Shown here: positions 5,802-57,142 of the stretch, piece after piece
Numbering within the stretch: position 1 is the first letter of the stretch
Layout of the letters: every line of letters starts with the position of its first letter
Assembly: GCA_035544015.1 (NCBI GenBank)
Contig: DATKIP010000076.1
Span: forward strand, 64,299 to 128,298
Direction of reading: 5' to 3'
Length of the DNA stretch: 64,000 bases
From: Candidatus Saccharimonadia bacterium
Lineage (GTDB): Bacteria > Patescibacteriota > Saccharimonadia > UBA4664
The notes under the pieces: generated by a model
What the model saw: only the letters and a program-made list of their open reading frames with translations
Databases searched by the model: none
What the model was told of the DNA's origin: nothing
Made by a program: the position numbers and the translations under genes

Positions 5802-6207
5802 GGTCTACCTTCAAAAATTCAGCCGGAGCCATAATATTGATACCCTCGTAGCTTTTAAGTACGAGGAGATCTTTATCACCGCTCACGATGCAGCTACAAC
5901 CGCCAATGACCGCCGTTTCCAGCACCCGGTTGTCGTCTTCGTCCCGAGACACATGAACACTAACGCCTCCCAGCCTCACGAGCTCCGTTTCTTGCTCGAT
6001 AAGTAGCTCCATGAGAGCAAAATCGGGATCAAAATCCGAAAATTTCTGTGTGATTTTGCGCCGCATCTCGGTCAAAATTTCGGAGGAAATAACTACCTCG
6101 ATCATCCCGCGAGCCAGCAACTCAACCACTTGTCGCGGCTTTCCCCCGAATACGAGCGCAGACAGCCAGACATTAGTATCTATGACGACCCTTGGCCTAG
6201 CGTTCAT
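5791..6207 (-). CDS. PIN-domain toxin (VapC-like)
   Basis: Carries the 'VVIDTNVWLSAL' N-terminal PIN acidic motif and the 'IVSGDKDLL' C-terminal motif. The ATG at 6207 overlaps the upstream antitoxin by 11 nt. Confidence 0.6.
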   Translation of the reverse strand: MNARPRVVIDTNVWLSALVFGGKPRQVVELLARGMIEVVISSEILTEMRRKITQKFSDFDPDFALMELLIEQETELVRLGGVSVHVSRDEDDNRVLETAVIGGCSCIVSGDKDLLVLKSYEGINIMAPAEFLKVDLTP

Positions 6208-6436
6208 TGGGGCTGTCGAGAATTTGATACGCTTGCTCCTCGCTCGAAATACCCATCTGGCGACCCTTCGCATTAGCCGCATCCAGCAGGCTCCCCCAAC
6301 GTCGCCGGCGACTCAAATCAGCCAAGGCCAGCCGGCGAAAGTATTCACTTCTACTCCCCAAATCCTGCTTGACCGCTTCGTCTACATCTTTTAACAATGT
6401 TTCGTCCAGCGCAATATTGAGTGTTTTTGTGGCCAT
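6197..6436 (-). CDS. Ribbon-helix-helix antitoxin (CopG/VapB-like)
   Basis: The 'MATKTLNIALDETLLKDVDEAVKQ...SRSEYFRRLA' sequence is a typical RHH DNA-binding fold. The gene lies upstream of and overlaps the PIN gene. Confidence 0.55.
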   Translation of the reverse strand: MATKTLNIALDETLLKDVDEAVKQDLGSRSEYFRRLALADLSRRRRWGSLLDAANAKGRQMGISSEEQAYQILDSPNER

Positions 6437-6478
6437 ACGTAACGAGCTCCTATATGGACAGATTGTATAGGTTTTGTT

Positions 6479-6520
6479 GATATGTGTCAATTCCTAACAA
6501 AAATAGCGCCGACACATATC
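6479..6520. promoter_or_regulatory. Perfect 10-bp inverted repeat GATATGTGTC-N22-GACACATATC in the antitoxin promoter region; candidate autoregulatory operator
   Basis: The palindrome is seen directly. It sits immediately 5' of the RHH antitoxin start, in the divergent intergenic region. Confidence 0.4.
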
Positions 6521-6585
6521 TATACATTCATAAAAAGCCTACACTGCACACAGCGTTAGTATCAAATAAGCAGAAGGGTCCAATC

Positions 6586-7269
6586 ATGCCCTCGCATCGC
6601 AAAATCTCCCTAACCGCGGGCATCCTTTATCTCCTCACCTTCGTCTCCATCCCCACCCTGGCGCTCTACACCCAAGTCAAAAGCACCGGCTACATCACCG
6701 GCGCCGGGCCGGACACGGCCGCCATCATCGGCGGCATCCTGGAGATCATCGTGGCGCTGGCCGGCATCGCCACCGCCGTGGTGCTGTTCCCGATCCTCAA
6801 AAAGCAAAGTGAAACCCTCGCGCTCGGCCTGGTGGCTGCCCGCGTCCTCGAATCCAGTGCCATCTTCGTCGGCGTGGCGTTCGTGCTGTCCATTGTGGCC
6901 CTGCGGCAGGCCGGAGCCGGCGCCGACGTGCTGCCCATCGGCCACGCGCTTGCCACCCTGTACGACCGCATCTTTTTCCTCAGCCAAAGCTTCATGCCCG
7001 CCATCTGCGACCTGTTGCTGGGCACGTTGCTGTACCGGTCGCGCCTGGTGCCGCGCGGCCTGGCGCTCATCGGCATCGTCGGCGGTCCCATTCTCATCCT
7101 TGGCTACCTCGCTGTGTTCTTTGGCCTCTTGGGGCAGCATGCCCCCCTGGCCGGCCTAAGCGCCCTGCCGGTGGCGGCGTTTGAGATTTCGCTCGGCATC
7201 TGGCTAGTCGTCAAAGGCTTCAACCCTCGGGCCGCCGCCGCGCTCGAGTCCAAACGCTCCGCTACTTAG
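6586..7269 (+). CDS. DUF4386-like integral membrane protein
   Basis: Six hydrophobic helices; the 'LTAGILYLLTFVSIPTLALY' pattern resembles the DUF4386 family. The ATG at 6586 was chosen as the start. Confidence 0.4.
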   Translation: MPSHRKISLTAGILYLLTFVSIPTLALYTQVKSTGYITGAGPDTAAIIGGILEIIVALAGIATAVVLFPILKKQSETLALGLVAARVLESSAIFVGVAFVLSIVALRQAGAGADVLPIGHALATLYDRIFFLSQSFMPAICDLLLGTLLYRSRLVPRGLALIGIVGGPILILGYLAVFFGLLGQHAPLAGLSALPVAAFEISLGIWLVVKGFNPRAAAALESKRSAT

Positions 7270-44451: not shown

Positions 44452-44691
44452 TGACGTTCCCCCGTCCGGTCGTGCATCTCGGCCTAGTGCCGAAATGCCG
44501 TCACGCGCTTGCACCCACTTTGCAGTTCGCCAAAATCTGCGCCGAGAGGCCCAAAATTCACGGTGAACTCCCAAATGGGAGACAAACCATAACTCAAAAG
44601 GGGGCTTCCGTCAAGATTCAGCCGGAAAGCAACGAACGAGATTGCGGGAGAGGTCGTCAGATGGCGGGGCCTCAAGTTATAATATGGTCAC

Positions 44692-45132
44692 ATGACCTAC
44701 AAAGTTCACACCATCGATCATATTGGAATAGTTGTTCACGACTTTGATGGAGCGAAAGCGTTTTTCGAAGATTTCGGTTTCATTACCCGGGGCGAGCAAT
44801 TCGAGGAAAGCGAGCTGCTAGACAAGGTAGTGGGGGTCAAAGGCGCTAAATCCCACATCGCCTTTATGGAGGCGCCCCACGCCCAGATAAACATCGAGCT
44901 TACCGAGTTTATTCATCCCATGACTCCATCCGTCGTAGAAGCTAATCACATCTATACGCAGGGTATACAACATATCTGCCTGGCGGTCGAAGACGTTGAT
45001 GGAATCATTGAATCTGTAAAACAAAAAGGCAGAGAACTCATAACGGACGTCATAAACTACCAAGATATCTATAAATTGTGCTATTTCCGTGGCCCTGATG
45101 GCATAATCATTGAGCTAGCAGAGAAGCTATAA
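44692..45132 (+). CDS. VOC family protein (glyoxalase/dioxygenase-like)
   Basis: Contains 'VHTIDHIGIVVHDFDGAKAFFEDFGF'. A TATAAT sits at ~44672 in a low-GC region. Confidence 0.55.
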   Translation: MTYKVHTIDHIGIVVHDFDGAKAFFEDFGFITRGEQFEESELLDKVVGVKGAKSHIAFMEAPHAQINIELTEFIHPMTPSVVEANHIYTQGIQHICLAVEDVDGIIESVKQKGRELITDVINYQDIYKLCYFRGPDGIIIELAEKL

Positions 45133-45155
45133 AAAAACAGGCTCAGGAGTCAAAC

Positions 45156-45470
45156 ATGCCTATTTATTATGAAGTCAAAATCAGCGCCGAAAATCAGGGT
45201 CAAGCCGATAAAATTGTGGATTCACTTCTCGAAAAGAAGTTAGTAACCGGCGGTCAATTCATCGTCGCGCCGGCACGGTTTCTCTGGAAGGGCAAAGTCG
45301 AGAACATGGACTACATCACTATTACTTCTTATACGACCGACAGGCACAAAGACGGGGTAATGGATGACGTTCGCAGAACCACGGCTGAAGATGTTCCTAT
45401 GATTACATTCGTTGCGCCCGACGACCTTAATCAAGAGCTTCGGGACTGGATAGATAAAACGCTCGCATAG
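45156..45470 (+). CDS. CutA-like divalent-cation tolerance protein
   Basis: Contains 'AENQGQADKIVDSLLEKKLVTGGQF...FLWKGKVE'. The 104-aa protein follows the CutA1 pattern. Confidence 0.5.
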   Translation: MPIYYEVKISAENQGQADKIVDSLLEKKLVTGGQFIVAPARFLWKGKVENMDYITITSYTTDRHKDGVMDDVRRTTAEDVPMITFVAPDDLNQELRDWIDKTLA

Positions 45471-45731
45471 CCGTAATTGTTTGGTATTTGTACGGTAAAT
45501 CAGATATAATAGTGATGGTGCAATTGTCTCGGAGTTCCAGCACCTGGCCACCAGCAGAATATCAAGATATCACAACTGGTTAACCTAATTATAGGATCTG
45601 CGCTATTTTCAAACAAGCAATAAGTGCAATGGTAGGCCAGACGTCCCAAATGTGGAACACTTTGTGGCCAAGTTTGATCAAGATGAGCGAGCGGCTTGAA
45701 GAGCTAGGCATCGGCGAGGAGGAGGGGAGCC

Positions 45732-46214
45732 ATGTTTAATCTCTTCCGCCGCCGCACCAATCCGGCCGCCATCCTCACTTCCAAACTGTACGACGAAAGC
45801 CGTTTCTACGCCGCCCTCACTAACGACTTAAAGCGCGTCAAACGCGAAGTCGTCATCGAGAGCCCCTACCTCACCTGCAAACGCACCAGCGAGCTTCTGC
45901 CGCTCCTATCGAAGCTCGTCCGCCAAGGCGTGAGGGTGCGCATTAATACCCGCAACCCCAACCACCACGAAGAGTACATGCGCATCCAAGCCTGGATGGC
46001 CCTCAAGCAGCTCCGCGCCGCCGGCGTCAAGGTCAGAACCTGCGACGACTACCGCCACCGCAAACTCGCCATCATCGACGGCGCCATCCTCTGGGAGGGC
46101 AGCCTCAACATCCTCTCCCAAAACAACAGCCGCGAAATTATGCGCCGCACCCAGTCCGAAGAACTCTGCCGGCAGATGATCCAGTTCACCGGCCTCAACA
46201 AATGGGCGTGGTGA
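45732..46214 (+). CDS. Single-HKD phospholipase-D-superfamily nuclease (Nuc-like)
   Basis: Carries a canonical HxKx4Dx6GSxN motif, 'HRKLAIIDGAILWEGSLN', in a 160-aa protein. The gene is high-GC inside a low-GC patch. Confidence 0.6.
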   Translation: MFNLFRRRTNPAAILTSKLYDESRFYAALTNDLKRVKREVVIESPYLTCKRTSELLPLLSKLVRQGVRVRINTRNPNHHEEYMRIQAWMALKQLRAAGVKVRTCDDYRHRKLAIIDGAILWEGSLNILSQNNSREIMRRTQSEELCRQMIQFTGLNKWAW

Positions 46215-46221
46215 TATACTC

Positions 46222-46440
46222 ATGACTAATATGCACGACTACAAAATCACCGAAAAAGACATCGACGCCATGGTCAACTACCTGCGCATCTTCCACCCCG
46301 AAAACGCCAACCGGGAATACGCTGTCGAGCTCTTCAAATACCTCAAAGCCACTGCACGCCGTATGGCATTTACCGACCCCGAGGCGCTCAACAAAATTTA
46401 TGATGATTACGAAAGTTCTAAGAAAGGAAGCAGGCCATGA
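46222..46440 (+). CDS. Small hypothetical protein (72 aa)
   Basis: An ORF 8 nt downstream of the Nuc-like gene, with no recognisable motif. Confidence 0.3.
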   Translation: MTNMHDYKITEKDIDAMVNYLRIFHPENANREYAVELFKYLKATARRMAFTDPEALNKIYDDYESSKKGSRP

Positions 46441-46564
46441 CTCAAGCGAAAAATCAGCCCGGCGCCCAATAGACTCATGCGCGACAGCCATACGGCAGGA
46501 TAAAGCCATGGATAAGTCCAAGCCCAGGCGGTAAAATCTGAGACACACTATCTGGAAGGATTGG

Positions 46565-47407
46565 TTGATGAAGCTGTTTTTCTCTTGGCAATCCGACTCG
46601 CCCGGCAACCGCAATCTGCTTGAGCAGGCCCTCAAAGACGTGGGCAAGGACATACCGGACTTTGAGATTGATACTGCCACTCGTCTGGCGGTAGGTTCGC
46701 GCGACATTGGGGCTATGATCCTTGAGAAGATTGACGGTGCTGACTTTATGCTGGCCGACGTCACCATCCTCGACCCCGATGCCGTCCGCCCAACACCAAA
46801 CCCCAATGTCATCTACGAGGCGGGATACGCTATGAAGGCTCTCGGTGAAGGTAGAGTAATTTTTGTCGCTGACCGTCGCTCGACCACTACCGCCAACCTC
46901 CCTTTCGACATTCGTAACCGCCTGATGATCTTGGCTGACTTTTCAAAGCCCGAAGCAGCGCGTAAAGAAGTGGCGGCGGTCATTAAGACCGTCACCGCCA
47001 ACTACACCCCAGCCGACCCAAACGCCGGCGCACCAAAGATTACCCTGGTTAAAGATACTGAAGCTAGATGGGCCTCAAATTATTCGGATTATGGAGCTGC
47101 GTTTGAGGTGAAGTTTATTATTGATAATGACGGTGGCGGACTGACCTATGTCACTAACGCCCAACTCGTTGGCACCAACGGGGACGGCTCCCCGTTCGTC
47201 ACCGATAGCTTCCGTTTTGCTGACGACGAAATTGACCATCCATACGGAGTAATGGAGGGTGCTATGGAGCAAGTGACGCTTTTTCTTGGGGCGGATCGCA
47301 GCCACCATCGCCAAATGCCCGATCTGGATCGCGATACAGTAGAGCTAGTGGTAACATTCCGGGGCGGCAGAATCGTCCGGGTTCCAGTTCGCATTGTCCA
47401 AAGCTAG
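46565..47407 (+). CDS. TIR-like (DUF1863/MTH538-type) N-terminal domain protein with unknown beta-rich C-terminal domain
   Basis: Starts 'KLFFSWQSDSPGN', followed by 'ADVTILD' and 'VIYEAGYAMKALGEGRVIFV', resembling bacterial TIR-like nucleotide-binding folds. Confidence 0.4.
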   Translation: MMKLFFSWQSDSPGNRNLLEQALKDVGKDIPDFEIDTATRLAVGSRDIGAMILEKIDGADFMLADVTILDPDAVRPTPNPNVIYEAGYAMKALGEGRVIFVADRRSTTTANLPFDIRNRLMILADFSKPEAARKEVAAVIKTVTANYTPADPNAGAPKITLVKDTEARWASNYSDYGAAFEVKFIIDNDGGGLTYVTNAQLVGTNGDGSPFVTDSFRFADDEIDHPYGVMEGAMEQVTLFLGADRSHHRQMPDLDRDTVELVVTFRGGRIVRVPVRIVQS

Positions 47408-47419
47408 TTAGGAGCGAAT

Positions 47420-47905
47420 ATGCCCACAGATCAGATCAAGATTCATGATTTCTCATACACGCTCTACCGATGGGCCTACGACTATCACAATTCCGTAAAC
47501 GACCTCCTCGATAAGCACCCCGGCCTGGCAATGTTTGCAGTAAAGTACAACAACGCCTGCCTCGCCTTTGAGTTAATCATTAAGAGCCATATTGCACACA
47601 AGAACCACGCATCAACACCGGAGGCGCTCGATAAAGTTATGAGAGGCTATGGCCATAGCCTTGTCAGGCTTGCTCGATATGCCGTGGAAGAGATTGGGCT
47701 GTATCTGCCCGATGAGGACTGGAAAAAACTAGAACTAGTTGATAAATACTATGCAACCCACCAATTTCGCTATCCCCCGTATGAACCACGCAAATCAGAT
47801 CTCAACCATATAGAGCTATTGGCTGCAATCAATGAACTTAGGTTTATCACGGCAACGATGCTGGTAGTAGCCCACGAACAAACTGATGGATACGCCATAT
47901 CTTAG
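47420..47905 (+). CDS. Hypothetical protein (possible HEPN-like helical protein)
   Basis: A 161-aa low-GC ORF lying 12 nt after the previous gene. The HEPN suggestion is weak, since no clear Rx4-6H motif is present. Confidence 0.3.
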   Translation: MPTDQIKIHDFSYTLYRWAYDYHNSVNDLLDKHPGLAMFAVKYNNACLAFELIIKSHIAHKNHASTPEALDKVMRGYGHSLVRLARYAVEEIGLYLPDEDWKKLELVDKYYATHQFRYPPYEPRKSDLNHIELLAAINELRFITATMLVVAHEQTDGYAIS

Positions 47906-47940
47906 AAGCCACGGAAGTAAAAAGGACTTAGAATAGGGTC

Positions 47941-48597
47941 ATGCAGACCAATACTCTCGACGCCTTCCTCGATAGGTATATCAGTGGCTACCTACTGGAC
48001 GATATCGAGTCTATACAGTCCAAGATCCCCGTTAGTGACGAGGGGAATGGAGCTTACTTAGTGACTGGCGCAATATGCTCAGGTATTGAGCTACTTGGTA
48101 CTCTCCTACAGGAGCATAAAGAATCGGGCGCGTTCCCCTTCGACCATTATTGTGCTCACTATCTATCCGAGGTTGATGAACGATATAAAGCCTTAGGTGT
48201 TTTTGGGCGTCAGCTCATTCGTAATGGCATTGCTCATACATTCTCGACAAAGGGCCTAATCGCCGTCACGCGCCAGGGAAGCCGAGAAAATACTCACCTT
48301 GTACGGTACTCCAAGTCTGAACTTTTGGTCATTAACGCCAACTACCTGCATGAAGACTTCCAAGCCGCGTACACTGAACATGCCCTGCCGAAGCTGGTAA
48401 TGGGAGGGGAGCTGCGTGACCGTGCGGAAGAGAACTACGAGCGCCTGAAGAACAAATACGCTGGCGAAATCGAGGAAGCCAGAAACCAGGCCAAAAATAA
48501 GCTCAAGTCCTGGCCCTGGCGTCATGCCGAACTTGAGCCTTGGGATGGGATGACTGAGATGATCGAATATAATGGCGAAGGATTCGGCGTTAGCTAA
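47941..48597 (+). CDS. HEPN-like protein (Rx4H motif 'RNGIAH')
   Basis: 'GRQLIRNGIAHTFS' fits the HEPN catalytic motif as seen in Abi/Swt1-type RNases. Confidence 0.4.
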   Translation: MQTNTLDAFLDRYISGYLLDDIESIQSKIPVSDEGNGAYLVTGAICSGIELLGTLLQEHKESGAFPFDHYCAHYLSEVDERYKALGVFGRQLIRNGIAHTFSTKGLIAVTRQGSRENTHLVRYSKSELLVINANYLHEDFQAAYTEHALPKLVMGGELRDRAEENYERLKNKYAGEIEEARNQAKNKLKSWPWRHAELEPWDGMTEMIEYNGEGFGVS

Positions 48598-48636
48598 TTC
48601 GCCTCTGACTCAATTCAAATAGCAAAGGTCTGGCCT

Positions 48637-49872
48637 ATGGAATCACTATTCGGCAAGAAAATGGAAGACTTAGAATTTCAGGATGTCGTGGATTTTTGCG
48701 ACAAGCAGTATAAGGAGGGGATATTTCTTGATTACAAGCAAGACCTAAGCGGTAAAAAGTCGCTTGTTAAGACGATATGCTCATTCGCAAATACCGTAGG
48801 CGGGTGGCTAATCATCGGAGTGGAGGACGAGAGCGACAAGCCTAAGCCTCCATATAATGGTATTGAATATAATCCTCAGATTGCCTCTGCCATTCCCAAT
48901 ATGATTGTTGATAGTGTTTGGCCTTACATACGACCGATAGTCCAAGTTTGCGGCCCCAATGCCGACAATAAAGCTTTCATTGCGGTTTATGTTCCAGAGA
49001 GTGACGAGGCTCCCCACTGGACAGCCGATAAGTCCCATCTATACGTTAGGAGGAGCGACCGAAGCGACTCGACTGATTGGGAGCGCTATGCCACTGCTCA
49101 CGAGTGGGAGTGGCTGAGGAATAAGCGATTAAAGGCCGAGGATCAGAGAGAGCGGAGCGGCAGCACTCTGCAGGCTATTTATGCTCGTCTGCACAACAGG
49201 GAATATCCAATAGTGGCCGGCGGCGGAACTACGGCCAACGACGGGCGAATGCGAGTGTTTGTCTCACCATTTTTCCCTAGCACTCAGCTTTTCTCAGGCG
49301 CAGAAGCGTATAACGCCCTATACGATCAACGCGTAAATACAGCAAGTGATGGCGCATTCCCTACTTATCTTCCAAGCAGGATGATATTTGATGAAGGTGC
49401 ATATACGCATGGCGTAGAACGGCTAACCTCAACAACTCATGAGTCGTTTCTCGGCCTAGAGAACTTTGGTGGCATCTTGGCGAATAAGGATATTTTACGG
49501 AGCGGCGGGCACGGCGAAAGACACATCATCTTTCATGAGTTCATGAACCGGCTTGAAGACACCCTAGAATTCGCTGCAAATGTATATAAGAGCAAGAATT
49601 ATCTCGGACTTGCCTGCCTTGAAGTGGGGATTAGTGTTCCGGTAGATTCGCGAATAGTGTTCAGAGGGGCAATTGGCTCAGGTTTAAATAGCACTGAGAA
49701 AGTTAATGTACGAGGGTCATTTGAAGCGTCGCTGAGACTGGATAACGAAGAGCTTTCCAGTAAGCCCAAACGATATGAGTTGATGAAAGAGATCGCCACA
49801 TCGTTACTGCATTCCTATGGCTACGCCGAGATACCTGGCGGTACGATCGAAGAAGCGTTCCAGAGACAGTAG
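48637..49872 (+). CDS. Schlafen/AlbA_2 (divergent AAA-associated DNA-binding) domain protein
   Basis: 'LEFQDVVDF...LVKTICSFANTVGGWLIIGVED' is the AlbA_2 signature. The ~250-aa C-terminal region is unassigned. Confidence 0.55.
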   Translation: MESLFGKKMEDLEFQDVVDFCDKQYKEGIFLDYKQDLSGKKSLVKTICSFANTVGGWLIIGVEDESDKPKPPYNGIEYNPQIASAIPNMIVDSVWPYIRPIVQVCGPNADNKAFIAVYVPESDEAPHWTADKSHLYVRRSDRSDSTDWERYATAHEWEWLRNKRLKAEDQRERSGSTLQAIYARLHNREYPIVAGGGTTANDGRMRVFVSPFFPSTQLFSGAEAYNALYDQRVNTASDGAFPTYLPSRMIFDEGAYTHGVERLTSTTHESFLGLENFGGILANKDILRSGGHGERHIIFHEFMNRLEDTLEFAANVYKSKNYLGLACLEVGISVPVDSRIVFRGAIGSGLNSTEKVNVRGSFEASLRLDNEELSSKPKRYELMKEIATSLLHSYGYAEIPGGTIEEAFQRQ

Positions 49873-49930
49873 CTCGCGAGCGCTCAGAGTGCACTATTGG
49901 CTCCGTTCATAACACGACAGGTAAAATGTA

Positions 49931-50581
49931 ATGCCAACAATCTACGACATATTGCCCTCTCTTGAAGATAGAATCCTGAGCCTGCTCCATGACTTCATGG
50001 CGGAGGATGGAGGGGCATTTCATACTTGGGAAGTAGCGGTGCTATTGCCCGGATCAAACGGGTTCGTACATTTCATGGCTGGCGTTAATTTATCACTCAA
50101 GAATGGCAATTATGTTTCCTCGATGGCAAATCTACGTGGCATGATCGAAGTACTAGGCGCTGTTGTTTATGACGGAACTGCCAGTCTGCCCAAGGAGGGG
50201 TACGACCGATTCCTTAAAACTGGGCGCTTGCCCAAATGGGATGAGGAAGCACAAAAGTGGATTGATTTGGGGCCACGCGAATCGGTGAAGTATGCACAAA
50301 TGGTTGTCGATGCAAAGACTAATCTCAAGAAAATTTACGATGACTGCTGTGACTTGCTGCACTTCTCATCGATCCATATGAGCTTTATGGGCGGCTTTGA
50401 GCAGCAGGGAAGCTTAGTGGAGAGGCTTGCCAAAATAAAAATCGGCTCTAAAGATCAGATTCCTATCAAGCTGCAACGCGACATGATCGATTTATGCGCT
50501 GAACTCGCAACTGGGCTAGGGAAGTGCATTACGCTAGGCATTGAGGAAAAGAAGAAGCGGAATACGCCTAAGCCCTCATGA
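49931..50581 (+). CDS. Hypothetical protein
   Basis: A 216-aa low-GC ORF with no motif recognised. Confidence 0.3.
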   Translation: MPTIYDILPSLEDRILSLLHDFMAEDGGAFHTWEVAVLLPGSNGFVHFMAGVNLSLKNGNYVSSMANLRGMIEVLGAVVYDGTASLPKEGYDRFLKTGRLPKWDEEAQKWIDLGPRESVKYAQMVVDAKTNLKKIYDDCCDLLHFSSIHMSFMGGFEQQGSLVERLAKIKIGSKDQIPIKLQRDMIDLCAELATGLGKCITLGIEEKKKRNTPKPS

Positions 50582-50666
50582 TACGCTTTTTGGACGGCCC
50601 GTTAGTCCAATAACGGCAGAAGCAACTACATCTTTAATATCAATATTCAGCGAAGATTGAGGCAAT

Positions 50667-51665
50667 GTGGAAAACCGCCTTGGAATTAAATCTTTCATAA
50701 CATGGCACCCTCCCAAGGTAGGGGTGACAGTTGGTAATATCAAAGTGTCTGAGGGGAATGGGGTTGTAATAACTACCAAATCAACCAACTCAAGTGGTCA
50801 GTCGTTTCGGTCTACGGTAAGTCTTGAATACGAACATTTAGCCCAAGGAGAGTTATCTTTATGGGTGCTCTTTCATGGCTTTGTTATGGGTGATCCTTGG
50901 ACGTTGTCATCGTATATGGGCACTGTACACGGTGTTGTTGAGCCAATGGACAAGCCTTTCGAAGATGAAAAGGATTATGGCGATTTTCTGAATACTGCTT
51001 ATCGAACAGAGGGTATTACGCAGAAGAGGAGCTACCAAGAGCTGTATGAAAGGTTCAAGGGACTAAGTGAGCGGCAGAGTGGCATGGTAAAAAACCTAAT
51101 GCTAGATTTGAAACCTGGGTCTCAATGGTCGCACCTTGAGATGGCGGATTATTCATATTGGAGAATGGTGATTGATTTCTCGATAATCGAAGCCATAATG
51201 GGGCGGCAGCCTTTTTGTGAAGAAACGCATGAATGTTCAAAATGTTCTAAGAAGAGCATTATGCACAATCCAATTGAGGCGAAAAAATGGGCGCGAGATA
51301 GGCTACTAGAAATTGTTGGCGATGCCGAGAAGGCCGACCAGTACATGAAAGTCATTTGGACTGTTAGGCAGAGTATACGACATAAAACCGCACACGAAAG
51401 TGATTATCCGCATCAAAGACCTTCAAGCCAGCTTCACCACGGCGATAACGAGTTTGATATTGATACGGTCGTCAACAGCTTCAAGAGTGATGCCCATGCG
51501 CTGACCGCCCTAGAAAGAAATATGCATGAGGTAACGCGGATATTGTTGCTAGATAATATTCTGCAAACGAAAGTTTTCCCTGACATACGTCCCTATATGG
51601 TTCGCTCAGGCGGGATGAGCTGGGACGAGTTCATGAAGATAGTGGAAGGAAAAGGCCAGATCTAA
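50667..51665 (+). CDS. HEPN/Abi_2 (AbiD/AbiF)-like abortive-infection-type protein
   Basis: The 'VIWTVRQSIRHKTAHESDY' Rx4H motif appears in a 332-aa protein with the size and composition of Abi_2 family members. Confidence 0.35.
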   Translation: MENRLGIKSFITWHPPKVGVTVGNIKVSEGNGVVITTKSTNSSGQSFRSTVSLEYEHLAQGELSLWVLFHGFVMGDPWTLSSYMGTVHGVVEPMDKPFEDEKDYGDFLNTAYRTEGITQKRSYQELYERFKGLSERQSGMVKNLMLDLKPGSQWSHLEMADYSYWRMVIDFSIIEAIMGRQPFCEETHECSKCSKKSIMHNPIEAKKWARDRLLEIVGDAEKADQYMKVIWTVRQSIRHKTAHESDYPHQRPSSQLHHGDNEFDIDTVVNSFKSDAHALTALERNMHEVTRILLLDNILQTKVFPDIRPYMVRSGGMSWDEFMKIVEGKGQI

Positions 51666-51760: not shown

Positions 51761-53176
51761 TTACATAAACTCAATTCCAGCCCCATCACGATCTGAGCTT
51801 AATGGCCTGAACAAAGCCCTCATAATAACCCGCTTCTCATCCGGCGTGCTCCGTACATAGAGCCGCACAATGGGGTTCACAGAATCACACGCAGGCACCG
51901 CCACCGACTCACCTCCACCTTGACTCCCTTGCACCTCACCCAGCCGCTCCTGCACGCTCGTCATCCGCTCCGTCAGCTCAGCATGCTTCATTGCATATTT
52001 CTCAACCGACACCTCACCCGCCAGCTTGTCCTCATATAGCATCTCATCCATTCGCTTGAGCCGCGTTAGTTGCCGCTGCAATGTATCAATAACGCCCACC
52101 CAATCAAGCGACTTCGGTCGCCCCGCCTCTAGTGCTTTTTCGAGCCATGCAAGAATCTTGCCATCGGAATCGTCCAGCCCCTCCAGCATCCCAATCACCC
52201 TGCGCTCCAGCCGATCCTCTCGCAAGAACCGATTGCCCCGACACACACCCTTACGCTGCTGACACAGCCCATAGTACCGACCCTTTTGCAGTTGCCACGT
52301 AACCATCCCACCACAACCCGTGCATCGAATCATGCCCTTAAATACCGGATTATGCTTACGAGTCCTAGGCTTATGCTGGCCTAGCTTAAGCTGCACCGCC
52401 TCAAATACTTCCTTGGTGATAATCGGCTCCTGCGCACCCGGATAATCCGCACCATTAAACCGATTAATCCCGATGTAAAAAGGATTCCTCAAAGTCTTTA
52501 GAACAAAGCTTTTTGAAAACGGCCGCCCCTTACCCGTTACTAACCCCATTGCTGTCATCTCCCGCATGGCCGCCGCTCCCGAATAGTCAAAATCCTTCAC
52601 CAAGATGAATACCCGCTGCATCAGCGATGTCGTATCCAAATTCGGCACATGAATGCGTTTACCGTTCTCGGTTATCGTCTTATAGCCCGGCGGGGGAGGC
52701 GAGGGGAGCCAACCCTGTGCCAATTTCTCAGCCCAACCCTTCATGGCCTCCTCACGCAAACTATCGGTATATTTCTTTGCTAGCGCCAGATTGATATTCC
52801 ACATAAATTTAGCGTCAGACCGCGAGGCCTTATGCAAAACCTGGTTCTCTTTAACGACATGCAGCATCCGCAAGCCGTCGTCCTCCAGCCAGTCATTGAT
52901 GTACGCAGCATCTTTCAAATTGCGCGTAAAGCGGTCGGTTTTCTCGACCACAAAATGGTAAATCTTGTGCTTCGCCACATAAACCAACAACTCATGGAAC
53001 ACCGTCCGACGTTCCTGCTTCGACGCCGTCTCCGTCAGCTTAAACTCCTTAACAACCGTCAAGTCCTTGCCCGCGCAATACTCCCGCAAAAACTTGATCT
53101 GTGCGTCCAGTGAATAACCCTCGTCCTCCTGCGCCTTGCTCGAAACTCGCGCCAAAATAATCGTTCTTGCCTGCAT
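51761..53176 (-). mobile_element. Large serine recombinase (resolvase/invertase catalytic domain + recombinase domain + zinc ribbon)
   Basis: N-terminal 'IILARVSSKAQEDEGYSLDAQ' catalytic serine motif. The 471-aa protein has a C-terminal 'CTGCGGMVTW...GLCQQRKGVC' zinc ribbon. Confidence 0.75.
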
Positions 53177-53332
53177 GTAATCTCTCCGTAGTTAGTGATG
53201 AGCACTATATATGAGAGTGGCAATAAGATTGCTTTCTGAAAGCTTATTCCATACCATGAGCTGTACACTCACAAAAAATGTGTTGTGGTTATGCTTTAAT
53301 GCCCAGCTAAACTTACCTACTGGAATAAACAC

Positions 53333-55903
53333 TTGGCCGCCCTCCTGTCACGCCTATTCGGCGACACCCCATACGACATTGCCATTAATAGCCTTCTTCT
53401 CCTCACCATGGGTTATTTCGCCTGGCGCTGGCTATTTGAGCCCGCGCTAGATGTCCTGGCGGGTCTATGGGCATACCAGAGATCACAAAGCCGGCCAGCT
53501 TCGTATCTGGAAATTACGCCACCCACACACAATGAAAAATCATCGCTGGCCACGCAACAACTTATCACCGTACTGCGGCAATACCTAGGCAAAAACGAGA
53601 GTGTCTCGTTGGAACTAGTCTCATCGCGCAAAGAGGGCATCCGCTATCTTATCCGAACCAGCCCAGACAACGTACCAATCTTGCAGCGCCATGTGGCGTC
53701 ATATCTACCAGAATCACGGTTCCGTATCCTAAATGACGCCCCGCCGCTATCTGATTCAAATGATACCACCTACCACTACGTGCATGAGATAAAACAAGCC
53801 CGCCATTACGCCTATCCGCTCCAGCCCCAAACTGATCTCAACCAAAGCGACCCCGTCGCTTTTATCGCGGGCTCTATGACAAACCTCCAACCAGGCGAAT
53901 CAATCGCCCTACAACTGATAATCACGCCCTACGATTCATACTGGATGCGCCGGCTCTACAACAAAATCCTGAATAAAGGCTATACCATTATCGATCACAA
54001 GCTCCGCCACTTCATCATGAAGCACTGGTGGGTTTGGTGCATCGCCCTCCTTATCGCTTATTACACGCATGACCTAGAGCTGGCGGGGTCGTGGGCCCTC
54101 GTGCTGCTTGTTGTCTCAATGTTCTTTATCAAACGCGAAGAGCCAGCCCTCACGGTGGGAGAACAACAACTATTCGATGGTATTCGAGAAAAACTTGGGC
54201 AGCCACTATTTAGGGTAAATCTCCGAATCTCGCTAACCGCCAATTCGGTCGCCAGGTTAAGTGAACTATCCGGAGGCATGGAAAGTTCACTTGCACCACT
54301 AAACGCCCCTTTCCAGCACCTCAGATCATCACAAGACTATTTCGGACGATTAGGACAAAGATTTGAGGGACACAAATTTCAACACCGACTCCCAGGACTA
54401 CTGGTGGTAAATACCAATATATTTGCCGCATCCGAGCTAGCCGATGTTTATCACTTCCCATACGGCACCATCACCACCGAAAACCTAGTCCGGTCACATA
54501 GCCGCACCCTACCCGCTCCGCTATCGCTGAAAAGTGATGCTAAATATGACATCGTCATCGGCCACAATCATCATCATGGCAGCACTACCGAGATTGGTCT
54601 CACCGCTGCCGATCGCCAGCGCCACGTCTACATCATCGGTGGTACCGGCAATGGTAAAACTACCCTGCTCACGCGCGCCATGATCGCCGATCTCCAAAAC
54701 GGCCAGAGCTTTGCCTTCATCGACCCGCACGGCGACGCCGCCGAAATGCTCCTACGGCACGTTCCAGAAGAGCGCCTAAGCGACGTCATTTATTTCAACC
54801 CCGACGACCTCGCGCGGCCCATCGGCCTTAATCTCCTCGAACTCCCCGAAGGCCTCGTCGGCGACGACCTCCTGCGCGAAAAAGACCTTGTCACCGAAGC
54901 CACCATCTCTGTCTTCCGCAAGATTTTCTCCGAAGAAGACGAGGGCGGTCACCGCATCGAATATGTACTCCGTAACGCCATTCAAACCGCCCTCACCCAG
55001 CCCGGCGCCACTCTCTTCACCGTCTTCGATCTCCTCAATGACCCGGCCTATCGCAAGCAGGTCGTGTCCAAGCTCCAAGACAAGGACCTCATCAATTTCT
55101 GGAAGCATGAGCTCGGCAAAGCCGGCGACTTCCAGCGCGTCAAAATGGCCGCCGGCATTACCGCCAAGATCGGCCGTTTCCTATTCTCGGCCTCGGCCAA
55201 GCGCATCATCGAGCAACCCAAATCAACCATAAATTTCGACGACGTTCTAAGCTCCGGCAAAATCCTCATCTGCAACTTTTCTAAAGGCCTGCTCGGCGAA
55301 GACACCTCGGAGCTCTTTGGCATCATGATCCTGGCCAAAATTCAGCTAGCCGCCCTCCGCCGCGCCCGGCTGCCCATCGATCAACGCTCGCCGTACCACC
55401 TCTATGTCGATGAGTTCCAAAACTTCGCCACCGCCTCATTCGTTCAAATGCTGTCGGAGGCCCGTAAATATCAGCTCTTTATGACCCTCGCCGAGCAGTC
55501 CACCTCCCAGCAAAAAGACCAGCGTATGGTCCAGATAATTCTCGCCAACGTCGGCACCGTCATCTGTTTCCGTACCGGTAACCCCGCCGACGAAAAGCTT
55601 TTGCTCCCATTCTTTAGTCCGTACATCGAGCCGGGCGAAATCACCAATCTACCAGCCTACAACTTCTACATGCGCATCGCCGGGGCCACCACCCAAGAGC
55701 CCTTCTCTGGCCAAACCATCCCGCCAACCGAAGAGGGGAGTGATGATATCGCCCGCCGCCTCATCGAGCATTCCCGTCAAACCTATGGCAAGACGCACGC
55801 TCCGGCCCAAGCCCCCAAAACCAGCAGCGAGACTAACAACCCTCAAATCAAAAGCGCCACCCCGCTTCGCCGGCCAGTCAAGAAACACAAGATCACCCAA
55901 TGA
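53333..55903 (+). CDS. Type IV coupling protein-like ATPase (VirD4/TraD/TraG family)
   Basis: N-terminal TM helices; Walker A 'GGTGNGKTT'; Walker B 'LYVDEFQNF'. At 856 aa it is next to a relaxation-type protein. Confidence 0.55.
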   Translation: MAALLSRLFGDTPYDIAINSLLLLTMGYFAWRWLFEPALDVLAGLWAYQRSQSRPASYLEITPPTHNEKSSLATQQLITVLRQYLGKNESVSLELVSSRKEGIRYLIRTSPDNVPILQRHVASYLPESRFRILNDAPPLSDSNDTTYHYVHEIKQARHYAYPLQPQTDLNQSDPVAFIAGSMTNLQPGESIALQLIITPYDSYWMRRLYNKILNKGYTIIDHKLRHFIMKHWWVWCIALLIAYYTHDLELAGSWALVLLVVSMFFIKREEPALTVGEQQLFDGIREKLGQPLFRVNLRISLTANSVARLSELSGGMESSLAPLNAPFQHLRSSQDYFGRLGQRFEGHKFQHRLPGLLVVNTNIFAASELADVYHFPYGTITTENLVRSHSRTLPAPLSLKSDAKYDIVIGHNHHHGSTTEIGLTAADRQRHVYIIGGTGNGKTTLLTRAMIADLQNGQSFAFIDPHGDAAEMLLRHVPEERLSDVIYFNPDDLARPIGLNLLELPEGLVGDDLLREKDLVTEATISVFRKIFSEEDEGGHRIEYVLRNAIQTALTQPGATLFTVFDLLNDPAYRKQVVSKLQDKDLINFWKHELGKAGDFQRVKMAAGITAKIGRFLFSASAKRIIEQPKSTINFDDVLSSGKILICNFSKGLLGEDTSELFGIMILAKIQLAALRRARLPIDQRSPYHLYVDEFQNFATASFVQMLSEARKYQLFMTLAEQSTSQQKDQRMVQIILANVGTVICFRTGNPADEKLLLPFFSPYIEPGEITNLPAYNFYMRIAGATTQEPFSGQTIPPTEEGSDDIARRLIEHSRQTYGKTHAPAQAPKTSSETNNPQIKSATPLRRPVKKHKITQ

Positions 55904-55956
55904 ATAAATCGTATTATTCATCCAAAGTTACATTTCCAGATACAAGCAGGTAAATT

Positions 55957-56829
55957 TTGTCTCTCCCCTATATACATATGTATATGGAGACGCCCATCAT
56001 GATTAAAACTCCAACTACCAAACAACAACTCGCTATCCTCACCCTCATCTACCGCTTTCGATTTGTCAGCACAAAGCACATCCAGCAAGCCTTAGGGATT
56101 AAGTATCTTAGCAGTGTCCAGCCAAGACTCAATAGGCTCGTAGAACTTGGCCTTATCGGCCGAAACTATAATGGTTCCCTAAGGCTTGCTGGGCTTCCAG
56201 CTTCGTACTATCTACAACCAAAAGGCATGCATGCGCTCAAGGCTATCGACTCCGACGTCAGCAAAGCCGCACTCCACAATGCATACAAAGACAAGACCGC
56301 TTCGGAGCAATTCATCCAGCACTGCTTGGCTATCGCCGATGTCAGTCACGAGCTCACTGAATGCTTTGGCGTCAGAGTTGAATTCTTCACCAAAAGTGAA
56401 TCCAAAGAGTACGATTACTTCCCGCAGCCGTTACCTGACGGCTACCTCACTATCGCCGGCGCATCAACCAAAGACGACGACTCCAATCAATATTTTTTAG
56501 AAGTCTGCGACAAACCAACGCCAATGTTTGCGCATAAGAAGCGTATCCAAGAACTGATCGACTATGCCGAAGGGGGAGAATGGGAGGCCGCCACCGGCAC
56601 TGAGATGCCAACAATATTGTTTGTATGTGAGTCGCCGGATATCCAGCGCAAACTAATGAAGCTCATAGAAATAGCGCTTGAGGATTCATACGAAGATGAG
56701 CTCAAGGTAGAAGCGATTCTGAAGAGCCAAATCTGCGCCATCCTCGACCCAAAGAAGAGCCCGGAAGCCACCAAAGCAGCTCCCGGGCCCCCTCTAGCTA
56801 ATCCTCGTCAGCCAATCTCACCGACATAA
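55957..56829 (+). CDS. Replication-relaxation family protein (Replic_Relax, plasmid/ICE-associated)
   Basis: N-terminal wHTH 'QLAILTLIYRFRFVSTKHIQQALGI...LNRLVELGLIG', typical of Replic_Relax proteins. Confidence 0.5.
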   Translation: MSLPYIHMYMETPIMIKTPTTKQQLAILTLIYRFRFVSTKHIQQALGIKYLSSVQPRLNRLVELGLIGRNYNGSLRLAGLPASYYLQPKGMHALKAIDSDVSKAALHNAYKDKTASEQFIQHCLAIADVSHELTECFGVRVEFFTKSESKEYDYFPQPLPDGYLTIAGASTKDDDSNQYFLEVCDKPTPMFAHKKRIQELIDYAEGGEWEAATGTEMPTILFVCESPDIQRKLMKLIEIALEDSYEDELKVEAILKSQICAILDPKKSPEATKAAPGPPLANPRQPISPT

Positions 56830-57142
56830 CTCGTACGCAATCCGGCGATAAGGGATCTTCCCAATCACGCAGCCTCCAGTCGTAGTAGTCGATACTCCAG
56901 CGAACCTTATGAAACACCATATTACTTAGCCACATGACATGACCGAAATCATGCCGGTGAAACGGATCAAGACCTGCGATCCAGTTTTCGTACTCACGTA
57001 TCTCTTGAATCAACCCTGGCAGGTTGTATAGATGCCAGACATTCCGCGTACACATTATCAACCCCTTCTTGGACCTGCGAAACTCATCATTCGCCGCCGC
57101 GATCCTCTCGGACAATGCTTTTTCCACTAATAACTCTTCCAT
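56798..57142 (-). CDS. Hypothetical protein
   Basis: A 114-aa ORF rich in Trp/His. No motif recognised. Confidence 0.3.
   Translation of the reverse strand: MEELLVEKALSERIAAANDEFRRSKKGLIMCTRNVWHLYNLPGLIQEIREYENWIAGLDPFHRHDFGHVMWLSNMVFHKVRWSIDYYDWRLRDWEDPLSPDCVRVMSVRLADED

Follow-up and report, generated by a model that had tools for sequence, protein, structure and literature searches.

Gene content and layout of the locus

We analyzed a locus of three small genes at positions 46565–48597 of a 64,000-nucleotide (nt) stretch of the genome of a Candidatus Saccharimonadia bacterium (contig DATKIP010000076.1), henceforth the window, in whose coordinates all positions at this locus are given. An initial annotation had described these genes as a candidate defense module that combines a TIR-like protein with two small HEPN-like proteins. 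All three lie on the + strand: gene A (TIR280; 46568..47407) codes for 279 amino acids (aa), or 280 aa if read from a start at 46565; gene B (B161; 47420..47905) codes for 161 aa; and gene C (C218; 47941..48597) codes for 218 aa. The intergenic gaps of 12 nt (A–B) and 35 nt (B–C), the common orientation and the low guanine-plus-cytosine (GC) content (0.54, 0.47, and 0.50 for genes A, B, and C, as against 0.594 for window positions 1–44600) are all as first described. Such close packing on one strand is not confined to these genes; it extends across eight genes (45732–51665), with gaps of 7–127 nt. An AGGA/AGGAG-like ribosome-binding site precedes each of the three and, because each has diverged homologs with conserved columns, they are real genes. 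They are probably co-transcribed; scans for promoters and terminators returned counts no higher than the shuffled expectation.

The true start of gene A is probably the ATG at 46568 rather than the TTG at 46565, because the database copy begins there: a record identical to the gene A product, annotated as a hypothetical protein from a 320-kb contig of a Candidatus Saccharimonadia metagenome-assembled genome, is 279 aa long and has ATG 46568 as its first codon, and an exact look-up of the product with the TTG start found no record. An antisense open reading frame (ORF; 46195–46812, − strand, 205 aa), which overlaps both the start of gene A and a 72-aa gene upstream of it, is most likely spurious.

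The TIR-like protein encoded by gene A

Residues 52–110 of the gene A product match the Pfam model PF10137 (E=2.4e-5) with a score of 24.7 bits, which equals the curated cut-off of 24.7, and PADLOC TIR effector models match the protein as well (E=1e-5). The TIR-like call is firm at the level of the family because both family members and distant relatives match PF10137: all 11 full-length homologs, which are 45–62% identical, do so (E<=0.1, best 1.8e-6), as do 15 of the 17 distant relatives that have only the N-terminal ~150 residues in common (best 1.9e-8). The identification of the N-terminal domain (approximately residues 1–150) as TIR-like thus holds by profile comparison, whereas its original placement in the DUF1863 class does not; the domain is of the CAP12/PycTIR class (PF10137). 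There is also a weaker Pfam match of gene A to nucleoside 2-deoxyribosyltransferase, and seven of the 11 family members match PF05014. Within the stretch matched by PF10137, Glu84 (codon 46817–46819, in the motif NVxYExGYA) is invariant in the 11 homologs and at least 90% conserved in the 17 distant N-terminal relatives, and it is a candidate counterpart of the catalytic glutamate of characterized TIR NADases.

The remainder of the protein, a domain of ~130 aa (approximately residues 150–279), is conserved within the family, with a WAxNYS motif and an invariant HRxMPDLDRDT motif, and has no match in Pfam, among PDB sequences, or, by tblastn, in plasmids and phages. The gene A profile found nothing among PDB sequences, and a scan of viral contigs recovered no member of the family.

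Two HEPN-like families, genes B and C

The third protein had been singled out for an Rx4H HEPN-type motif, RNGIAH. This motif is present (R94-N-G-x-A-H99; 48220–48237) and is to be seen as a family signature rather than a chance match, because R94 and H99 are invariant in all 81 members of the gene C alignment, along with D21, E50, and G53. In the structural model, the motif closes the third core helix (82–100), N95 supplies a polar residue directly after the arginine, and E50 falls within helix 2 (38–56). The active-site layout of HEPN domains comprises an Rx4-6H motif at the end of helix 3, a polar residue after its arginine, and an acidic residue in helix 2 (PMC3710099), and gene C displays both the Rx4-6H motif and the acidic residue of helix 2. 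Outside the HEPN core, the model shows an inserted beta-hairpin and, at the C-terminus, a long helix. The prediction that gene C adopts the four-helix up-down HEPN fold and typifies an undescribed HEPN family has good support, although some doubt remains. The Pfam HEPN models match none of the 81 members, a Foldseek comparison of the model with the PDB gave nothing significant, the profile found nothing among PDB sequences, and tblastn against plasmids and phages returned no match.

A word-seeded search that returned the query alone had suggested that gene C was an ORFan; this was overturned when HMMER was run in full against 1.84 billion representatives, recovering 342 relatives at E<=1e-3 and 94 at E<=1e-10. 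Those of the cluster relatives that were looked up are metagenome singletons.

The second protein, initially termed HEPN-like, is modeled as a four-helix up-down HEPN fold and is more clearly HEPN than the third. Its family numbers 11 homologs (55–69% identity), throughout which four features are invariant: an Ex3K pair (E51 and K55) within helix 2; H79, which falls in the insert separating helices 2 and 3; R117; and R124-x5-H130, placed ahead of the last helix, in or after the loop that joins helices 3 and 4. By its place among the predicted secondary-structure elements rather than by superposition, H79 recalls the alternative histidine of the AbiV and AF0298-like HEPNs (PMC3710099). Against PDB sequences, the gene B profile gave a weak match to the HEPN protein TT1696 (E=0.17), ranked below two designed helical-repeat proteins; a scan of viral contigs found no member of the family. 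As hhalign detects no similarity between the gene B and gene C families, the two are not paralogs at a detectable level.

Neighborhoods of the homologs

We checked whether the three genes keep company elsewhere by collecting 106 loci around homologs (numbered with the prefix L), of which exact look-ups of single homologs supplied 13, genomes 6, and metagenomes 80, the remainder being drawn from additional look-ups and two plasmids. They span about five independent lineages of full-length gene A homologs, about six of gene B, and about nine of gene C, together with about 75 distant TIR-like relatives. All eight proteins of the gene row were used in tblastn searches, profile hidden Markov models (HMMs) of the three families were run on every ORF, and the related-locus search for gene C proceeded from a 14-sequence alignment. 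With either method, and apart from this same contig, members of more than one family never share a locus among the 106; the arrangement A-B-C is on record only here. The immediate neighbors of the homologs differ in every lineage.

For gene A, a lone homolog in a related mobile element (L003) has the coupling-protein gene on one side and a convergent Fic/SocA pair on the other; in the closely related lineage L002/L104-106, a 155-aa membrane protein is found upstream of the homolog; in L021, an unrelated 286-aa gene (region 5840–6700) overlaps its end; and in L022, its neighbors are likewise unrelated. L021 also encodes a 521-aa AbiV-type HEPN protein (549–2114; PF18728, 9.6e-14), along with what look by eye to be a Dam-like methylase and a ParB-like protein.

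Homologs of gene C stand alone just after the DUF3768 gene of a related element (L010-12) and occur in genomes of Saccharimonadia, of Moraniibacteriota, and of one Limisphaerales bacterium. There they adjoin serine recombinases, a set of Dcm, restriction endonuclease, and Vsr genes, an IS200-like gene, a Ppl-like ATPase, or a subunit of a type I restriction system.

These observations bear on the proposal that the locus encodes one dedicated defense system, in which a TIR sensor/NADase signals to, or cooperates with, one or two HEPN RNases. Such a system would accord with the tight spacing, common orientation, and probable co-transcription of the genes, with the predicted HEPN fold of both the B and C proteins, and with the gene bearing an Rx4H motif that overlaps the gene A homolog of L021. 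We nevertheless regard it as unlikely: the arrangement is recorded on this contig alone and the co-occurrence searches by both methods came back empty; related mobile elements carry the gene A or the gene C family without the others; the spacing that suggested a unit is shared by eight unrelated genes; and SAVED, CARF, STING, SLOG, and cNMP domains were not detected in A, B, or C. Because the genes do not co-occur elsewhere, a dedicated module of TIR sensor and HEPN effectors is not supported, and the comparison of loci points to A, B, and C being neighbors in a row of defense genes rather than one three-gene system.

The neighborhoods of gene B invite a different proposal, viz., that it supplies a HEPN toxin or regulator as a portable partner for whatever effector adjoins it, so that A and B would here make up a two-gene module. 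Its homologs nearly always have a same-strand neighbor, which overlaps them or lies within 50 nt in most lineages. This neighbor is a transmembrane protein in L005-7 (with an 8-nt overlap in L005) and a PD-(D/E)xK-like protein in L008/L009, while in L004 (9383–10504) the homolog follows, after 126 nt, a 163-aa protein that comes near the threshold of the Pfam HEPN model PF05168 (20.4 vs 22 bits). In a further locus (L100; 2538–5259), genes for a reverse transcriptase (RVT_1) and for a membrane-anchored protein of 181 aa precede the homolog; this is possibly a neighborhood of a defense-associated reverse transcriptase or a group II intron. Set against the proposal, the neighbors share nothing with one another and include a housekeeping aldehyde dehydrogenase (L101-103); in the compact genomes of the Candidate Phyla Radiation (CPR), short gaps carry little weight; gene A homologs are never accompanied by a gene B homolog; and no antitoxin gene of the MNT type was seen beside gene B or among the neighbors scanned. 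We give the portable-partner proposal little credence. In L004 itself, the two small HEPN genes differ from each other and lie in tandem, close to a type I restriction-modification (R-M) system and a ParB-methylase.

The mobile element and its cargo

Directly downstream of the gene row, Pfam searches identify the backbone of a mobile element (51761..57142, mixed strands): a large serine recombinase (51761–53176, − strand), a TraG/TrwB-like coupling protein with DUF8128 (53333–55903, + strand), a Replic_Relax protein (55957–56829, + strand), and a DUF3768 protein (56798–57142, − strand). On the basis of these four genes, the setting surmised in the initial annotation is confirmed, and the A-B-C segment is identified from gene content as cargo of a serine-recombinase integrative mobilizable element. 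Its probable left edge lies at 44575–44700, where GC falls from 0.675 in the adjoining peptidase A4 gene to 0.45 in the glyoxalase and CutA1 genes; from there GC stays low up to the end of the window, without a rise that would mark a right edge. No att-like direct repeats flank the cargo row beyond an 11-mer, a match at chance level, and a megablast of the row against plasmids gave no match.

Homologous backbones (27–61% identity) occur together with gene A homologs in L003 and L021, together with a gene C homolog in L010/L012, and in L060-L065. The same backbone thus recurs with different cargo, and homologs of gene A or gene C are found in it singly and in different slots. In L060-L065, a protein of 474–476 aa with an IFYSWQSD TIR-like N-terminus is encoded between the DUF3768/Replic_Relax genes and the coupling-protein gene (~4980–6410 in L062-L065; 1412–2836 in L061). 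Its C-terminal ~330 aa are unannotated, and its upstream neighbors differ between elements; that of L065 resembles DUF4238 by eye. Related elements have a gene C homolog or this long TIR-like gene in the slot after DUF3768, and the window has an Exo_endo_phos gene there. When related elements fill one and the same slot with different genes, this is usually the mark of exchangeable defense or competition cargo, and the variability of this slot accordingly indicates cargo behavior.

The remaining members of the row lie on the same strand. The row is headed by two genes (45732..46440, + strand), the first coding for a 160-aa PLD-family nuclease-like protein with a single HKD motif (PLDc_2, E=5.8e-14) and the second, 7 nt after it, for the 72-aa protein. 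The former has PADLOC matches to the C-terminus of Mokosh MkoC (E=3e-13), DrmC, and DpdK, the latter a weak match to PDC-M10A, and the two possibly constitute a small nuclease module. Past gene C lie three more + strand genes (48637..51665), coding for proteins of 411, 216, and 332 aa. The first, directly after gene C (48637–49872), has an N-terminal Schlafen/AlbA_2 domain (PF04326, E=2.9e-15), a weak PADLOC match to PDC-S50, and an unannotated C-terminal region of 260 aa. The other two are without a match in Pfam, PADLOC, NCBIfam, or PHROGs. The 332-aa protein, the last of the row (50667–51665), contains an RHKTAH motif, which is Rx4H with a histidine directly after the arginine, and from this motif it could be a third HEPN-type gene of the row.

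The recurrence of TIR-like genes on such elements raises the alternative that the genes serve the element itself, through addiction by post-segregational killing, competition with rival elements, or anti-defense during establishment. TIR-like genes of the FSWQSD type recur in the backbone of at least nine related serine-recombinase elements and, among the collected plasmids, 61 records match the N-terminal TIR-like domain, 51 of them conjugative; one example, from Providencia, sits between mobH and traA. On the other hand, the slots change hands among a gene C homolog, the 474-aa TIR-like gene with its varying partners, and Exo_endo_phos, as cargo would; gene C homologs also occur beside R-M systems, away from such elements; and no antitoxin-like partner was found. 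We hold this alternative to be rather unlikely.

A further reading would be that proteins with an FSWQSD-type N-terminal TIR-like domain perform a function linked to the transfer of mobile elements rather than serving as ordinary anti-phage cargo. Its basis is their distribution across at least nine diverged serine-recombinase mobilizable elements of the CPR, in both the 280-aa and the 474-aa architectures, along with the mobH/traA position on proteobacterial conjugative plasmids. Were this improbable reading correct, the TIR-like proteins could act in the recipient or against rival elements, e.g., by destroying NAD+-derived immune signals or nucleotides; in a lesser variant, the gene B HEPN family could be a portable partner that arms different neighboring effectors.

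Proposed mode of action and its significance

The account that we consider moderately probable is that A, B, and C are independent, single-gene effectors of the abortive-infection type, within the eight-gene cargo row of a serine-recombinase integrative mobilizable element. In keeping with it, the homologs are found as lone, variable cargo of elements or of defense islands, as with L003, L010, and L021, and with gene C beside R-M and Ppl-like genes. The analysis shows the gene structure, the folds or domain class, the invariance of the motifs, the element setting, and the lack of co-occurrence, and the enzymatic activities, triggers, and defense role set out below are what we infer.

The gene A protein would combine sensor and effector within itself. 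Cleavage of an N-glycosidic bond, by means of Glu84, may fall to its TIR-like domain, with NAD+ as the likeliest substrate; given the PF05014 similarity, nucleotides are a further possible substrate. TIR NADases need oligomerization, and the C-terminal domain of gene A might mediate either this or the binding of a trigger, as does the non-TIR domain of SpbK. Genes B and C would encode two unrelated, metal-independent HEPN RNases that stay inactive until infection and, once activated, might cut tRNA, rRNA, or mRNA, leading to cell arrest, as is the case with the single-gene HepS. The three genes, while probably expressed from one transcript, would have no mutual need of each other.

Several observations weigh against this account. 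The absence of + strand terminators between genes A, B, and C in our scan and the 12-nt gap between A and B both fit co-expression. Many of the comparison contigs are short, so that neighbors may lie out of view. The 286-aa gene that overlaps the gene A homolog of L021 carries an Rx4H motif (RGKVIH, within KRGKVIHG); Pfam, hhalign, and PDB comparisons give no support for its being a HEPN, and the motif nonetheless leaves room for a loose tendency of TIR-like genes to associate with non-homologous HEPNs. As for the individual proteins, the TIR call for gene A itself comes from a profile match exactly at the threshold. The active-site candidates of gene B are ambiguous: no conserved arginine stands 4–6 residues before H79, and R124-x5-H130 falls in a low-confidence stretch of the model.

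Members of the CPR/Patescibacteria possess very small genomes, and known immune systems are thought to be scarce in them. The locus reveals a family of mobilizable elements by which TIR-like and HEPN genes are carried between such bacteria. Stand-alone TIR-like and HEPN effectors are already known kinds, whereas the particular families are new to the curated collections: in agreement with the initial annotation, which recognized no named system, none of the A, B, and C families is represented in Pfam, NCBIfam, PADLOC, or the annotated PHROGs. More specifically, gene C defines a HEPN family, absent from curated libraries, that numbers at least 342 sequence clusters and has R94, H99, and E50 as its predicted catalytic residues; gene B adds a small HEPN family with a putative alternative histidine like that of AF0298 and AbiV; and the private C-terminal domain of gene A may be a new trigger-recognition module. 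The analysis also corrects an over-reading, in that genes joined by adjacency and by a matching TIR-plus-HEPN logic failed the test of co-occurrence.

Comparison with known systems

Among the multi-gene systems with TIR components, Thoeris offers a parallel in ThsB: like it, gene A encodes a stand-alone TIR-type protein in a defense-island setting. However, the Pfam class of gene A is PF10137 rather than that of ThsB (DUF1863), and the genes of the island yielded no ThsA-like candidate (SIR2/SLOG or Macro/TM). There is a likeness in domain class to the TIR proteins of CBASS (Cap12, TIR-STING) and Pycsar (PycTIR), since the TIR-like domain of gene A matches PF10137, including the region of the conserved glutamate. 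It differs from them in that the TIR-like domain is N-terminal and is joined to an unrelated C-terminal domain; nor did the ten genes scanned (44692–51665) show a match to CD-NTase, PycC, STING, SAVED, or cNMP-binding domains.

For genes B and C, a comparison can be drawn with the HEPN-T/DUF86 toxins of the HEPN-MNT pairs (PDB 7ae2, 8xdj, 5yep, 4nqf, 1ufb). Here too there are differences, as no gene for an MNT nucleotidyltransferase adjoins B or C in the window or among the scanned neighbors of their homologs, neither protein reaches the PF05168 or DUF86 threshold, and gene C has in addition its beta-hairpin insert and C-terminal extension. The AbiV proteins, to which the H79 position of gene B was likened above, are set apart by the lack of a significant sequence match to PF18728.

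Two single-gene systems of the abortive-infection kind serve as precedents. HepS of the Gifsy-1 prophage is a lone 218-aa HEPN anticodon nuclease, which is activated by a phage tail-tip protein and cuts the anticodon loops of tRNAs (PMC13043305; PDB 9oik). SpbK of the Bacillus subtilis element ICEBs1 is a single-gene, two-domain TIR NADase that is activated by a phage portal protein (PMC11984713). Its TIR domain is C-terminal, whereas that of gene A is N-terminal and of the PF10137 class. The likeness proposed here is one of general design and extends to a similar size (267 aa in SpbK and 279 aa in gene A), the pairing of a TIR with a non-TIR domain, a conserved glutamate, and the status of both as non-essential cargo genes of integrative elements.

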